64,000 nucleotides of DNA from a virus (Duplodnaviria > Caudoviricetes), in IMG/VR virus record IMGVR_UViG_3300014204_007706, positions 7,584-71,583 of that record; one strand, given 5' to 3'. The notes under the pieces are model-generated. The model saw only the letters and a program-made list of their open reading frames with translations, was not told where the DNA came from and did no database searches. Both the position numbers and the translations under genes were made by a program. Positions within the stretch are counted from its first letter, which is position 1. Every line of letters begins with the position of its first letter. This document shows positions 42,587 through 52,865 of the stretch, piece by piece.

Positions 42587-43660
42587 ATGCAGTTATTACT
42601 ACAACAAGAGTCAGAGATATCTCTGCCTCATATGGAAAATTTCGCCATCGTTTTATGTGGTGGGGGTGGCGCCGGTCGTTGGCAAGCTGGAGTTTTGGCG
42701 GCTTTGGCTCAACAAGGCGTCATAGAACGCGCCCGCGTAATATCTGGAACGTCCGTGGGTGGGATTAATACAGGAATTTTTGGTTTATACGGATTGACAC
42801 AGGGCGCAACTTCCTCTTTAAATCCCTGTCCTACTCCAAGATGGCATCAAGCTGTAGACGTATGGGAGTCAATAACCAAAAATTCTGATGGCTATAAAGG
42901 TGACCTTACGAGCCTTCCTGGACAGATAGGGTCGGGAGTAGGCCTTCTTGCAGGTAGTGATTGTCTTTTAAACCCGGACCCTTTGCACCAAAAAATAGAT
43001 AATATTTTTGGATCACTGGATATGGAAGCAGTGTCTGAAATTTCCGGTGTGCACTTAATGATCTCTGCAATGGACTTAAATTCACAGCTTGAGGAATTTT
43101 ACACCAGCTTTGGACCAGATCGCAGCATGAAAATATCCGAAGCTATAAAAAGAACCTCGGCGCTGCCTGTCGTTTTTAAATCACAACCAGGTAAAGATTC
43201 GGCGCACCCTAACGCCGTACACTGGCATGTTGACGGCGGTTTGGCCGCTAATAATCCATTTTTAGCCTTGAATACCTATAACAGAAATTTTCCAGGGGCA
43301 CAGGTAAAGAAAGTTATTATTGTATACTGCTACCCTGATATAACCACGGATATTGGTATAAGTACGTCAACAGCTAATGATAACACAGAGTACAGAATGG
43401 CACGCGACGTGGCTTTACGGTCTTTGGGGGCAGTTATGAATGGGCAAGAACAGATGGCTGAGTCGGTAATTATAGACAAAGTTAAAGAAGCCGGCTGGGA
43501 CGTGTTAGCTTTGTACCCAAAAAATGCTCCCTGTGATGCTATAAATTTTTCCAAGACCATATTGTTGCAGGAAGGTTACGACTATGCTGTTGCCGGCAAG
43601 GGTTACTCTTACAGAGATGACGCGACTATAAACATTATTGATTTTTTAAAGCGTACATGA
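42587..43660 (+). CDS. Patatin-like phospholipase
   Basis: GGGAGR (GxGxxG), GTSVG (GxSxG), VDGG. Confidence 0.88.
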   Translation: MQLLLQQESEISLPHMENFAIVLCGGGGAGRWQAGVLAALAQQGVIERARVISGTSVGGINTGIFGLYGLTQGATSSLNPCPTPRWHQAVDVWESITKNSDGYKGDLTSLPGQIGSGVGLLAGSDCLLNPDPLHQKIDNIFGSLDMEAVSEISGVHLMISAMDLNSQLEEFYTSFGPDRSMKISEAIKRTSALPVVFKSQPGKDSAHPNAVHWHVDGGLAANNPFLALNTYNRNFPGAQVKKVIIVYCYPDITTDIGISTSTANDNTEYRMARDVALRSLGAVMNGQEQMAESVIIDKVKEAGWDVLALYPKNAPCDAINFSKTILLQEGYDYAVAGKGYSYRDDATINIIDFLKRT

Positions 43661-44088
43661 GTAAGAAAGAACCGGATGAAGCATTAGAACCTATAAGAGT
43701 GCGCGCACTTATAGAGGAAGCCAATGCCAATGTATTTGTGGAAAACTTCCTTTACGCAGAGAAAGACGCACTACGCATTGTTTGGCTAAGGTTCCTTTTG
43801 GAAGGTTCCACGCCGGAAAGAGTCATCACCCAAGTTAAAACTATATCTACAGACTTTAACATACAATTGTTGCTCTTTGCTGTAGGGCGCTCGTACTACC
43901 TGAGTTATTCTTCTGTACTTGGTGCGTTCCATAAGGTTAAAAGTTGGCAAGGTGCGGTTCCGTCCTTGGAAGAAATGGATAGACTGTGTATTTCGCAATT
44001 TCGAGTAAAGTCGAAGGTAAAGGCTATGTTTCTTGAAGACCGCTGGAGGAAGCTCAGTGACGATTATAACCTTAAAGACTCACGTTAA
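43657..44088 (+). CDS. Hypothetical protein
   Basis: 143-aa ORF, ATGA coupling. Confidence 0.55.
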   Translation: MSKKEPDEALEPIRVRALIEEANANVFVENFLYAEKDALRIVWLRFLLEGSTPERVITQVKTISTDFNIQLLLFAVGRSYYLSYSSVLGAFHKVKSWQGAVPSLEEMDRLCISQFRVKSKVKAMFLEDRWRKLSDDYNLKDSR

Positions 44089-44443
44089 AGCTACCACAGT
44101 AGGTACTATACGCCGCGTCATGGAAAATCCTGACATTACTGTGGAGTTAGTTACAAGGTTCGGGGATTATTACCTAAAACGTACTTTTGGTAAGATCCTT
44201 CAAATGCTGGACTTAAATTTTACAGTACAGTCAACTTGCAGCGAGTCATACATAGAGGTACGCGGTGGAAAGATATATTTCCATATTTGTGACATAAATA
44301 ATACTGATACAGTTTCGTGGCTGGTGTACGTCGATGATAATTTAATACCTGTTGAGAATTATAATGTGGAATATTTTGCAGACCCGGAAGATGATACCAA
44401 TATGATAAGAAAGGTAGTTGTGCCTGGCAGCGCATGGATATAG
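44057..44443 (+). CDS. Hypothetical protein
   Basis: Start moved to GTG 44057 with GGAGG RBS. Confidence 0.55.
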
Positions 44444-49578: not shown

Positions 49579-50196
49579 ATGAAGGAAAAAGTAATGCCGG
49601 ATACGTCCGGAAAACTAAGAATGCACGTCGAAGTAGAATGCACCTACTGCAGAAAGTTATTTTGGAGACCTAAGCGGTTCTTAGATAGACACAAGAGGGC
49701 TTATTGTTCACCAAAGTGCGCTCACGCAGCACAGCAACAGCGTGTCGTTGTAACGTGTTATCACTGCGGAAAGAGTTTTACAAGAACTCAAACCAAGCTT
49801 AAGGGTAGCCGTAGTGGATTTTATTTTTGCTCTCGTGGGTGTAAAGACGCGTCACAGCGTGTGGAAAACAATGGACATAATTGGAACCCGCGTTATGTTA
49901 AGAATACGGGTAGGTACACATACCGTACCATTGCTTGGAGAAATTACCCACATAAATGTGCTTGTTGCGACTACGCTGAGCACGAAGAGGGGCTGGAAGT
50001 TCACCACATTGATGGTAATAGAAGGAACAACAAATTAGAAAACTTAATCATTTTGTGCGCTCTTTGCCACAGACTTGTAACAAATGGCGTTTATACTATA
50101 ATAGATAGAAAAATGGTTAAAAATACTGAAGAGTTAAAGTCTTTGACAAGATGTTTAGACGCTTATGATAAGATTACGGGCCGCGGGACTGCATAG
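49579..50196 (+). CDS. HNH endonuclease with N-terminal Zn-finger repeats
   Basis: CxxC...YCSxxC repeats; CACC...LEVHHIDGNRRNNKLENLIILCALCH. Confidence 0.88.
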   Translation: MKEKVMPDTSGKLRMHVEVECTYCRKLFWRPKRFLDRHKRAYCSPKCAHAAQQQRVVVTCYHCGKSFTRTQTKLKGSRSGFYFCSRGCKDASQRVENNGHNWNPRYVKNTGRYTYRTIAWRNYPHKCACCDYAEHEEGLEVHHIDGNRRNNKLENLIILCALCHRLVTNGVYTIIDRKMVKNTEELKSLTRCLDAYDKITGRGTA

Positions 50197-50828: not shown

Positions 50829-51184
50829 GGGGGCGACCGGATTCGACAGGGTTGCCGACAGATTAGAAGCGTGCCGAGACTCGCAATCGTTATCGCGGGA
50901 ACAAACAATTGCTAACCCAGACCTAGCACTTCAGGCTGCGTAAGTAATGCTCTGCTCAGTAGGCTGACTCATTGCAGCTGAACATGGAGAGTGTATAAAT
51001 TAGAATGCGCCAATGGGTTCGGAGAATGACGCCTATAGTAATCCGTAGCACAACTAAGAGTTAGGCGAAAGCGCGGAATGACTGCTAACAAACACCGCGC
51101 CGGAAATCATGATGTTAGACTACGCACGTAGAAGGAATCGATACGTTACCATGGACCTGGGTTCAATTCCCAGCGCCTCCACCA
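50829..51184 (+). ncRNA. ssrA: tmRNA; tag (A)ANPDLALQAA
   Basis: 5' GGGGGCGACCGGATTCGAC; 3' GGGTTCAATTCCCAGCGCCTCCACCA with G3-U; tag reading frame 50911-50943. Confidence 0.95.
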
Positions 51185-51188
51185 AAAA

Positions 51189-51390
51189 TGCCCGACATGA
51201 TGCCGGCTTCGGCCGAGACATCGAGTACTGCATCCTCAGGTAGTGCCCAGAAATGGGTATAAAGTAGACCGGAGAATTCTAGAATATCCGGGCGACTGCT
51301 CAACGACGAGGCATTCACTTAGGTAGGTAGCCTAGAGCTACTGGACGGTGATTTATAAGGCAGGCGGTGCAACTCCGCTTAGGGCACCGA
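51189..51390 (+). ncRNA. tRNA-like structured RNA of unknown function
   Basis: Acceptor-like TGCCCGA/TAGGGCA, T-arm GGCGG-TGCAACT-CCGCT, internal hairpins. Confidence 0.5.
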
Positions 51391-51445
51391 CTTATACGGA
51401 CGCTCCGTGTTTCGCTTTTAGAGCGTTTAATATAAAATATTTCTC

Positions 51446-51474
51446 TTGACAAAAACATAAACTTTTGGTATAAT
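51446..51474 (+). promoter_or_regulatory. Consensus sigma-70 promoter
   Basis: TTGACA-17nt-TATAAT. Confidence 0.85.
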
Positions 51475-51523
51475 GAACCCACGATAAAAATACTTAGCCC
51501 TTAGGGCGGAAAGAAGGCAACAC

Positions 51524-52045
51524 ATGAAAATCATCGAAGCGTTAAAAGGACTGAAAGAGCTCAAAAGAAAAGCAGAAGATCTTCGTGACAAAGTCTCCAG
51601 ACACTCCGCGTACAAAAGTACTGAGACAGCAGTTTACGGTACAAAGGAAGACCAGACCAAACAGATAAAGGAATGGCTGCAGTCTCACTCCGACCTCGTG
51701 AAGGAAATAGAGAGACTGACTCTCTGCATACATAAAACCAACCTGGAAACCCAGGTAACAATAAGGCTCGGCGATAAGGATGTAACCAAACCTATCGCGG
51801 CTTGGATTATCAGACGCACTGAGCTTGCCACGATGGAAGCCAGGGCATGGCATGGTCTCACTGACAGACATCTGTCAGAAGGAATGGAGACCAACAGCGC
51901 GGGGGAAAAGATACAGGTCAGCATCGTAAGGTGCTATGAACCAAAAGAGCGCGACAACAAGGTTATGCTTTACACGAGCGAACCTGCAGAAATAAACAGC
52001 AAGCTCGAAGTGATAAATGCTGTTACGGATTTAATCGAGAAGTAG
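51524..52045 (+). CDS. DIP1984/DUF6847-like coiled-coil protein
   Basis: MKIIEALKGLKELKRKAEDL...EIERLTLCIHKTNLET...INSKLEVINA; family recalled from pattern, not searched. Confidence 0.6.
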   Translation: MKIIEALKGLKELKRKAEDLRDKVSRHSAYKSTETAVYGTKEDQTKQIKEWLQSHSDLVKEIERLTLCIHKTNLETQVTIRLGDKDVTKPIAAWIIRRTELATMEARAWHGLTDRHLSEGMETNSAGEKIQVSIVRCYEPKERDNKVMLYTSEPAEINSKLEVINAVTDLIEK

Positions 52046-52204
52046 GGAGGAGATCCCGGGTTCGAGCCCCGGCCTGCGGAGGACCCCTTTTGGGTGCGCA
52101 GATGTGGTGTAGTGGATAACACACCTCCAAAACACGGAGACGCGGGTTCGAATCCCGCTGGAGGCCCCTGGGCCTCTGTCGTCTAGAGGCTAGGATACCG
52201 TGCC
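52046..52204 (+). ncRNA. Two tandem circularly permuted, anticodon-less tRNA-like units
   Basis: Each unit has the 3' half (anticodon-stem strand, T-arm, acceptor strand) before the 5' half (acceptor strand, D-arm, anticodon-stem strand); GGAGG/CCTCC and CACGG/CCGTG pair perfectly. Confidence 0.8.
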
Positions 52205-52218
52205 AAAAGTTCTTTAAC

Positions 52219-52568
52219 AGTTCACAGAGCCTACGTGCAAAGATAAAAACCGATACCAAAAACCACGAACTCCCATGACGATAATTGGGAAAATACAAAT
52301 TGGATTGTATAACACCGCATTTTTTGTAGGATGTCTCCTTCGGGAGAGTCTAACAAAAATCTAAGGGTAAGTCCGTAAGCCTAAAGTTCGAAAGTTCGAA
52401 AGACTCAATTTTCGAAAGAACGCAAGGAGGACGCCCGCAAGTCCGGAGCTCAATGCAGGAATGCTTAACCATTCCACCATGCAGAGAGAACGACCTAAAA
52501 CAAGTTAATGTTTATGGTTTTTATGCTCGGAACTTTTTAGGCTTCTTGCCTGGGAGGCGCTGTGAATT
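52219..52568 (+). ncRNA. Structured RNA domain with 8-nt repeats, contiguous with the permuted tRNA units
   Basis: Nested long-range helices, UUCG hairpin, AAAGTTCG repeats; no credible ORF. Confidence 0.65.
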
Positions 52569-52584
52569 TTATGAAAGATTTGTA

Positions 52585-52613
52585 TTGACAAACAGAGGTG
52601 TTTGTTGTACAAT
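52585..52613 (+). promoter_or_regulatory. Sigma-70-type promoter for the membrane/ABC operon
   Basis: TTGACA-17nt-TACAAT. Confidence 0.75.
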
Positions 52614-52652
52614 GTAGTCGTAATAAAAAAAGAATGAAAGTGGTGACGCTCA

Positions 52653-52865
52653 GTGGGAAAACTCATATCAGCCATGCTTACAGCCTTACTAATTGCCGTC
52701 GGTATTTCTTTAGCCTGTCTAGTTTACGCCCTTCCTATTATGTTGCTATGGAACTGGCTCATGCCCAAAATCTTCGGTCTCATTACTATTAATTTCTGGG
52801 AAGCCCTTGGTCTTTGTTGCTTAGCAGCGTTTTTATTCAAAAGTTCAAATACAAAATCCGAATGA
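52653..52865 (+). CDS. Small membrane protein
   Basis: Two hydrophobic segments; PIMLLWNWLMPKIFGLITINFWEALGL. Confidence 0.65.
   Translation: MGKLISAMLTALLIAVGISLACLVYALPIMLLWNWLMPKIFGLITINFWEALGLCCLAAFLFKSSNTKSE

Follow-up and report, generated by a model that had tools for sequence, protein, structure and literature searches.

A gene for a DIP1984-fold protein and a structured RNA encoded beside it on the same strand form a two-part module in a phage genome, and the two travel together in dozens of phages and in some bacteria. The RNA belongs to a real, conserved and uncatalogued family. Across 31 copies, strong covariation is seen in helices P1, P2 and P4 as well as in a pseudoknot, P3, and AAG triplets recur in a periodic array. 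Judging from the sequences, gene and RNA probably form an undescribed protein-RNA particle, and we assign a probability of roughly 0.55 to the reading that the pair assembles into a ribonucleoprotein through the AAG array.

Genomic setting of the module

The window analysed here is a stretch of 64,000 nt that makes up most of a 71.6-kb IMG/VR virus record, which by estimate is about 48% complete. The module is surrounded by many tRNA genes and by a tmRNA gene at 50829-51184. An earlier note on this DNA had listed a perfect sigma-70 promoter, a 173-aa helical protein, a permuted tRNA pair and a 3′ RNA of about 520 nt, and had taken them together for a self-contained, possibly undescribed unit of protein and non-coding RNA. 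The promoter is indeed perfect, and together with the consensus promoter of the next operon it flanks the gene, the tRNA mimics and the RNA (Table 1). Neither a blastn search with 51150-52700 nor a tblastn search with three proteins of the family gave a match to any of 50,697 cultured-phage records.

Table 1. Positions of the features of the module in the window.
Feature	Position	Strand	Evidence and remarks
Sigma-70-type promoter, TTGACA-17 nt-TG-TATAAT	51446..51474	+	12/12 matches, TG extension; drives gene, tRNA mimics and RNA
Gene for 173-aa DIP1984-fold / DUF6847-like protein, stop codon included	51524..52045	+	HMM matches below cut-off, AlphaFold2, fold match
tRNA mimic unit 1	52046..52128	+	MFE fold; partial tmRNA/tRNA model matches
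tRNA mimic unit 2	52133..52202	+	Centroid fold; weak YrlA model match
Conserved structured RNA, 348 nt	52220..52567	+	Alignments, pair counts, nhmmer E 5e-28
P1	52220-52232 with 52555-52567	+	P1 + P2 (helix 1): 16/17 pairs with changes on both sides
P2	52234-52240 with 52546-52552	+	Counted jointly with P1
Near-invariant single-stranded box AGAUAAAAA	52241..52249	+	Conserved alignment columns
P3 pseudoknot, CCGA with TCGG in P4 loop	52250-52253 with 52527-52530	+	Helix 2: 4/4 pairs covary
Optional hairpin TCCCA/TGGGA, loop motif GACGAUA	52271..52290	+	In 11/31 relatives, covarying stems
Variable region	52291..52362	+	In the window local hairpins only, including a UUCG hairpin at 52335-52348
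AAG array, nine triplets	52363..52441	+	Starts 52363, 52369, 52377, 52384, 52392, 52400, 52416, 52424, 52439
Hairpin P5, CTC...GAG base, GGAATG/CATTCC tip	52449..52486	+	Read from alignments
P4 hairpin, GAA/UUC, CCUAAA/UUUAGG, AAGUU/AACUU	52488-52506 with 52531-52545	+	Helices 3 + 4: 92-94% of cells paired
Invariant GGCUUC box, end of P4	52540..52545	+	
Promoter of the next operon	52585..52613	+	11/12 matches; bounds the unit

Structure of the conserved RNA

We fetched 26 viral and 19 MAG loci, all of which encode homologues of the 173-aa protein, and aligned 31 copies of the RNA (alignment A3); pairs were counted on the unedited MAFFT alignment. Over these 31 copies 84.5% of the cells are paired, compared with 67.5% in shuffles and 32-52% when the partners are slid by 1-3 columns. 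Changes on both sides are found in 26 of 35 pairs, and the cells that carry such changes number 229, whereas shuffles give 85. The frequent G-U pairs fit the + strand.

The outer closing helix proposed in the earlier note corresponds to P1 and covaries. For the two helices that had been nested inside it, the family has other partners. The A-run of ATAAAAACC/GGTTTTTAT is an invariant unpaired box, and the CCGA that follows it pairs with TCGG to form P3, while the 3′ strand of AAGCCTAAAGTTC/GAACTTTTTAGGCTT is paired in the family with CCTAAA..AAGTT at 52494-52506, as part of P4. Both the ATAAAAACC/GGTTTTTAT helix and the AAGCC.../...GGCTT helix were rejected because they are not kept in relatives and compete with the covarying P3 and P4. 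P3 occurs at its expected place in 17 of the 31 copies, compared with 7.5 ± 1.8 when the partners are permuted, and none of 2000 permutations reaches 17. The 3′ strand of P3 sits inside the loop of P4, which makes P3 a long-range pseudoknot. P4 itself (helices 3 and 4) has six pairs with changes on both sides.

Among the smaller hairpins that had been noticed in the window, GAATG/CATTC forms the tip of P5, a conserved hairpin that varies in length and in relatives frequently carries a GNRA loop. TCCCA/TGGGA recurs in about a third of the relatives (Table 1), with compensatory changes in its stem. The hairpin TCTCC-TTCG-GGAGA cannot be counted as conserved structure: it belongs to the variable region, and L070, the closest relative (77% identity in the protein), lacks it. 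Over 52220-52567 the window RNA has every element of the family, namely P1/P2, the AGAUAAAAA box, P3, the AAG array, P5, P4 and the GGCUUC box. It is followed by a U-run at 52568-52571, and most copies in the family likewise end with P1 and then a U-run. The 3′ RNA of about 520 nt has two components, a conserved RNA of 348 nt and a pair of tRNA mimics that were inserted in this lineage and are missing from L070.

Rfam 15 (4227 models, including GOLLD, ROOL, RAGATH-27, HEARO and raiA) gave no match at 52206-52570, whether with the gathering scores or at E-values up to 5. Over the RNA in 15 relatives, at E-values up to 1, the only matches were the embedded tRNAs and a single sub-threshold match to YrlA. 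No description of such an RNA was found in the literature.

The AAG array

The successive AAG triplets of the window array are spaced by 6, 8, 7, 8, 8, 16, 8 and 15 nt, and they form two blocks with the 16-nt step between them. Arrays in the family have 8-10 AAG triplets that lie 7-8 nt apart. The recurrent spacing signature, 7,7,7,8 / 16 / 8,7,8, again gives two blocks, and degenerate units show up as multiples of the spacing (14-16 and 22 nt). In the array region of the 31 RNAs, AAG is found 252 times where 88 are expected, and spacings of 7 or 8 nt occur 148 times versus 4.8 ± 2.1 in shuffles, which is far beyond chance. The earlier note had described five units with a period of 8 nt; their periodicity is borne out by these counts, but not their extent, and they turn out to be the middle part of the array of nine triplets.

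A comparison of the window with L070 finds a nearly identical scaffold in which almost every spacer is different. The spacers are non-random: they show a weak consensus and track the G+C composition of the genome, and the repeat unit may therefore exceed AAG. Spacers also recur within one RNA, TTCGA being present twice in the window and TCTA, TCTC or GCTC being repeated in relatives.

TRAP, an oligomer that binds the trp leader of Bacillus subtilis, reads NAG triplets with 2-3-nt spacers. The sites of HutP, likewise an oligomer, consist of XAG triplets with 4-nt sequence-independent spacers, and two sites are joined by a 17-nt linker (PMC2425495). Spaced NAG or AAG triplets in two blocks are common to the RNA of HutP (the Bacillus subtilis hut terminator, with a period of 7) and to the window RNA, for which the RNA side alone is visible. 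The RNAs of HutP and TRAP are short mRNA leaders, whereas the RNA of this family has 300-400 nt, is closed and pseudoknotted and has a tRNA-shaped domain. The folds of HutP and TRAP are unrelated to the DIP1984 fold; our fold searches list neither, and this absence is no evidence either way.

Another system with a likeness to the module is VIPR, a phage pair of the protein Vipr and the vrRNA, in which protomers line YNNGG repeats (10.64898/2026.04.26.720920, 10.64898/2026.04.26.720927). The vrRNA has about 100 nt, with short repeats that combine a fixed motif with variable bases and with a pseudoknotted cap (10.64898/2026.04.26.720920). Both systems pair a small phage protein with a repeat RNA that has a structured, pseudoknotted part and lies up- or downstream of the gene. 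The proteins differ in that Vipr is a RAMP (RRM), whereas the window protein consists of a helical hairpin with small β elements and therefore falls outside VIPR. The repeats differ as well: the vrRNA has 5-nt YNNGG units, whereas in the window RNA, which is about 350 nt long, each unit consists of AAG and 4-5 further nt. By analogy, HutP, TRAP and VIPR are the closest working parallels, and none of them is homologous.

The DIP1984-fold protein

The 173-aa protein matches the two profiles of the DIP1984/DUF6847 family over its full length with scores below both curated cut-offs (NF038048: 34.3 bits, cut-off 70; PF20935: 22.6 bits, cut-off 27), and PF20935 is present in homologues with at least 55% identity. 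AlphaFold2, used with an alignment of 63 sequences, predicts a long helical hairpin, two β hairpins and two more helices with a pLDDT of 97, in agreement with the helical protein expected from the sequence. According to Foldseek, this predicted fold matches 3KDQ, the crystal structure of an uncharacterised Corynebacterium diphtheriae protein of the DIP1984 family, with a probability of 1.0 and a TM-score of 0.56-0.63, and we therefore assign the protein to the DIP1984 fold. VIA-align superposes 149 of 152 residues with a Z-score of 12.7, clearly ahead of the rows that come next. 3KDQ is the sole convincing structural neighbour; all other rows of the fold searches match the helical hairpin alone. 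It was found by fold search only, since phmmer against the PDB sequences returned nothing. In the literature on DIP1984, DUF6847 and 3KDQ we found neither a function nor a partner RNA described.

The family is large, with 540 matches in 90%-identity clusters and 347 representatives at 50% identity, most of them metagenomic. Among the conserved positions are Lys-2, Lys-8, Lys-11 and Lys-16, which form a basic stripe on helix 1, Arg-97/Arg-98, Arg-143 and several aromatic residues, as well as the motifs TN (72-73) and E..NA.T (162-168). The net charge of the protein is near zero and it has no recognised RNA-binding domain. T5.085 of phage T5 was considered as a family member and rejected, with a weak match to the family HMM (E 1.6e-4), a probability of 6% in hhalign and no signal from Pfam or NCBIfam; it is kept as a lead.

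A complex prediction with four copies of the protein scored a symmetric dimer at 0.74, whereas the best control reached 0.01. Of the proteins used for calibration, 20 of 30 with structures solved as same-chain pairs come up to that mark, as does 1 of 23 with single-chain structures; the calibration used two copies where our job used four, and the predictor may simply have reproduced the related crystal structure 3KDQ. The runs share at least 85% of the contacts, and the pLDDT of the partner is at least 85. The prediction supports self-association of the protein as a symmetric dimer, and it supports the dimer only, not a ring or a filament. The earlier note had proposed an oligomer that would bind one subunit per repeat and would display the tRNA mimics; of this, the dimer is the part that the prediction backs.

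tRNA-shaped domains in and beside the RNA

In most relatives the variable region contains a cloverleaf of normal order whose D and T arms are good. The choice of anticodon is arbitrary: those for Ser (UGA, GCU) and Tyr (GUA) are found on bodies of 73-74 nt without a long arm, A34 anticodons such as AAU and AGG are present too, and the anticodon loop differs between the close relatives L024 and L025. For this reason the cloverleaf domains look like tRNA-shaped structural modules and not like decoders. The RNAs of L017, L018, L032 and L036 contain a permuted, acceptor-capped domain with the same layout as the mimics of the window; the one in L017 scores 37.5 bits against the YrlA model, below the gathering score of 69. 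Copies without a tRNA-shaped domain are those of L004, L007, L011 and L070.

The permuted tRNA pair of the earlier note was recovered by folding, its layout being reproduced for unit 1 in the MFE fold and for unit 2 in the centroid fold. Each unit has a closing stem of 5 bp with a canonical T arm inside. Unit 1 is built from the closing stem GGAGG/CCTCC, the T arm, an acceptor-like hairpin capped by a small hairpin, and the D arm, which is an order of the YrlA type. In unit 2 the closing stem CACGG/CCGTG is followed by the T arm GCGGG/CCCGC, an acceptor stem capped by a tetraloop, and a D arm resembling that of tRNA-Glu. L070 has no such units, its RNA beginning 25 nt past the stop codon, which marks the tandem mimics as an insertion that is specific to the lineage of the window and lies outside the conserved RNA.

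YrlA (RF02553) is a tRNA-mimicking Y RNA of bacteria and phages that is bound by Rsr/Ro60, and its domains are ordered as variable region, T arm, capped acceptor stem-loop and D arm with one closing stem (PMC4201824). The order of T arm, capped acceptor stem-loop and D arm is found in the folds of both window units and in the modules of L017, L018, L032 and L036. The YrlA model gives unit 2 a score of 16.3 bits at 52137-52190, where the gathering score is 69. No match to a TROVE/Rsr gene was found in the 71.6-kb record, itself about 48% complete, and the Ro-binding motif GNCGAAN0-1G is absent from 52000-52599. On the grounds of score, gene and motif, the mimic units of the window are not members of YrlA.

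A tRNA gene suggested by RF00005 at 52098-52166 (29.9 bits) was rejected as a chimera of the 5′ half of unit 1 and the 3′ half of unit 2 with unpaired ends; ARAGORN calls no tRNA there. IMG/VR contains no match to an exact 46-mer from unit 2. When all 536 nt are folded together, the MFE structure misleads by joining the T arms of the two units, and it was left unused.

Linkage of gene and RNA and its possible meanings

According to nhmmer, the RNA adjoins the gene in about 33 of the 45 homologue loci, and it lies on the strand of the gene every time. Typically it starts no more than about 30 nt past the stop codon; in six loci (L035, L037-L040 and L064) it is found directly upstream of the start codon, and in several the two are 0.7-1.7 kb apart. 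Distant homologues with 26-32% identity, from MAGs of Synergistaceae, Desulfovibrionaceae and Acidobacteriota, have a divergent RNA behind the gene with CAAG units 8 nt apart and a closing stem of its own. One relative with 75% identity has a different sequence in the 330 nt between its stop codon and the end of the contig.

The linkage also holds in the opposite direction. A search with the RNA pattern only gave 15 places, of which five were known, two were chance matches and eight were new true copies, and all eight records with new copies also carry the gene. The chance matches are L052, which lies inside a coding region, and L058; neither has an nhmmer match. The check for a conserved RNA downstream of the homologues has therefore come out in favour of the earlier note, with the RNA present in nearly all of them and covarying. 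Because of this, and because the search anchored on the RNA returns the gene, a self-contained unit of protein and RNA is well supported as a genomic module. Synteny of a gene and an RNA is possible without physical binding, and the linkage can be read in other ways.

Could the RNA be a machine or scaffold in its own right, like ROOL, GOLLD or raiA, with the gene merely co-transcribed in a phage cluster for tRNAs and translation? GOLLD and ROOL are large structured RNAs of phages and Firmicutes that have no assigned job and occur near tRNA genes, and GOLLD can hold a tRNA in its variable region. The RNA of this family is likewise large, ornate, pseudoknotted and placed among tRNA genes, it can carry a tRNA in its variable region, and the distances of up to 1.7 kb between gene and RNA would also suit this explanation. 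To our knowledge, GOLLD and ROOL have neither a dedicated protein partner nor a triplet array, and their Rfam models do not match the window RNA at permissive thresholds. What makes an RNA-only function unlikely, even if it is the alternative that survives best, is that the linkage is kept in both gene orders and across phyla down to 26-32% protein identity, that records found from the RNA alone have the gene in eight of eight cases, and that periodic unpaired triplets are typical of protein-binding sites.

A second explanation would make the RNA a cis-acting element of the gene's own transcript, either an autoregulatory leader or a 3′ element, which the protein would bind only to control its own synthesis or the stability of its mRNA. 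Such an element would not be expected to serve equally well upstream and downstream of the gene, and an attenuator needs far less than 300-400 nt, five helices, a pseudoknot and a domain shaped like a tRNA. The protein would also be left without a function beyond the control of itself. We see a slim chance for this explanation, which draws on the constant strand of the RNA, on its distance of mostly 30 nt or less, on the six loci where it directly precedes the start codon and on its end in a stem and a U-run.

The short repeats beside a small protein gene on mobile elements also recall a toxin-antitoxin-like or abortive-infection pair whose toxic protein would be neutralised by the repeat RNA, as in type III systems. 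Family members on small Acinetobacter plasmids are even labelled 'septicolysin', a mislabel that is a matter of annotation only. Type III antitoxins such as that of ToxIN consist of tandem repeats of about 36 nt that are cut by the toxin, whereas the units seen here measure 7-8 nt and lie inside a closed scaffold. Together with the lack of any nuclease among the matches of the fold search and with the location of the module in tRNA clusters of large lytic-type phages, this makes such a pair very unlikely. The least likely explanation is a programmable recognition like that of VIPR, a logic that exists in phages (10.64898/2026.04.26.720920) and in which protomers on the array would use the AAG triplets as anchors and the 4-5 variable bases together to specify a nucleic-acid target: the anchors are invariant and the spacers variable, almost all of them being replaced relative to the 77%-identical relative while the scaffold is kept, but spacers recur within one RNA, their consensus and G+C tracking fit neutral or weakly constrained linkers better than guides, and the protein is unrelated to RAMPs.

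A model for the particle

We return to the reading that we prefer, a ribonucleoprotein formed through the AAG array. From the structure of the RNA family, its array and its linkage to the gene, we infer binding, stoichiometry and a cellular role as follows. The module would consist of two parts under one shared promoter, a DIP1984-fold protein and its cognate structured RNA. The closed and pseudoknotted scaffold of P1, P2, P3, P4 and P5 would hold out the largely single-stranded AAG array in two blocks. Symmetric dimers of the protein may then bind along the array, reading AAG and ignoring the spacers in the way HutP and TRAP read NAG, which would give a defined ribonucleoprotein. A tRNA-shaped domain usually rides on the RNA, and in the window phage two acceptor-capped mimics lie just upstream. 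The domain could link the particle to a reader of the tRNA elbow; RNase P, modification enzymes, the ribosome or a tRNA-directed host defence are candidates.

In its fullest form, the model would describe a new class of ribonucleoprotein in which dimers line the array and the tRNA-shaped domain engages the tRNA or translation machinery or acts as a decoy for defence, and in its boldest version the variable bases would even form a gapped code like that of VIPR. We regard this form as a long shot.

If the pair is true, a dedicated partner RNA would provide the first functional handle on a domain of unknown function whose structure, 3KDQ, is solved. At the same time, a widespread and ornate RNA of 300-400 nt would be one more of the few large RNAs in bacteria and phages that have no known job. 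This RNA brings together a long-range pseudoknot, a triplet array of the protein-binding type and a tRNA-shaped domain, and it occurs in large phages and in several bacterial phyla. The module is placed in phage clusters of tRNA, tmRNA and RNase P-like genes, and the tRNA mimics that it recruits are of three topologies. For this reason it may point to a new route by which phages act on host translation or tRNA surveillance.

A culturable candidate for the gene-RNA module

A profile HMM built from the DUF6847-like protein family touches a single ORF in the 50 kb of phage T5 searched, namely T5.085, a hypothetical protein of 212 aa (E 1.6e-4); the hhalign probability for T5.085 versus the family is only 6%. 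Directly downstream of this gene lie about 350 nt without annotation, in which a closing stem (CTAGTAAA/TTTACTAG) is found together with about ten (A)AAG units at a spacing of 7-8 nt. The module may thus far be represented in culture by phage T5.

Positions of features in phage T5, the L070 contig and the window
Feature	Position	Setting	Basis
T5.085 and downstream gap	phage T5 (AY543070.1), locus L073 23135-24144; record about 43135-44143	minus strand	HMM and sequence reading
T5 stable RNAs (RNAI, RNAIII, RNAIV, RNAX, RNA1, RNA2, RNA2H, RNA3)	L073 10285-21567	tRNA region	record annotation
RNase P RNA-like match	L070 1-130	contig start	RF00373
HNH endonuclease gene, zinc-finger motifs	window 49579-50196	between tRNA-Gln and tmRNA	
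G+C-rich stretch	window 51185-51430	directly after tmRNA, before the unit's promoter	sequence reading
T-arm-like hairpin	window, about 51366-51382	in G+C-rich stretch	
Two terminator-like hairpins	window 51394-51425	in G+C-rich stretch	

Sequence around the gene in relatives

In L071 (648-979) and L072, contigs encoding the 75%-identical protein P0003, the 330 nt between the stop codon and the contig end are something other than the AAG-array RNA, with no nhmmer match there. This stretch is structured in appearance, and its GGTGCAACTCC hairpin resembles the T-arm-like hairpin of the window. In other loci (L056, L057/L067, L060/L068, L065 and L018) the gene is separated from the RNA's conserved 3' block by 0.7-1.7 kb. 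ARAGORN called no tRNA in this gap, which could be accounted for by inserted genes or by a variable region of very large size.

RNAs and genes of the surrounding tRNA clusters

The first feature on the contig of the closest relative, L070, is an incomplete RNase P RNA-like match of 48.7 bits, truncated by the contig end; nine tRNA genes come next, and after them the DUF6847 gene with its RNA. This match agrees with the phage RNase P RNA read in the window from sequence alone.

Within the window, the G+C-rich stretch had likewise been read as a tRNA-shaped RNA. It contains the hairpin GGCGG-TGCAACT-CCGC, and Rfam returned weak permuted-tmRNA noise and nothing else. The HNH gene is typical of homing endonucleases, which lie dispersed among the tRNA genes of phages, T5 being an example.

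In the tRNA region of T5, eight RNAs are entered in the record as “stable RNAs with unknown functions”, and several of them carry a tRNA-like label. Unexplained RNAs are abundant in large phage tRNA clusters.
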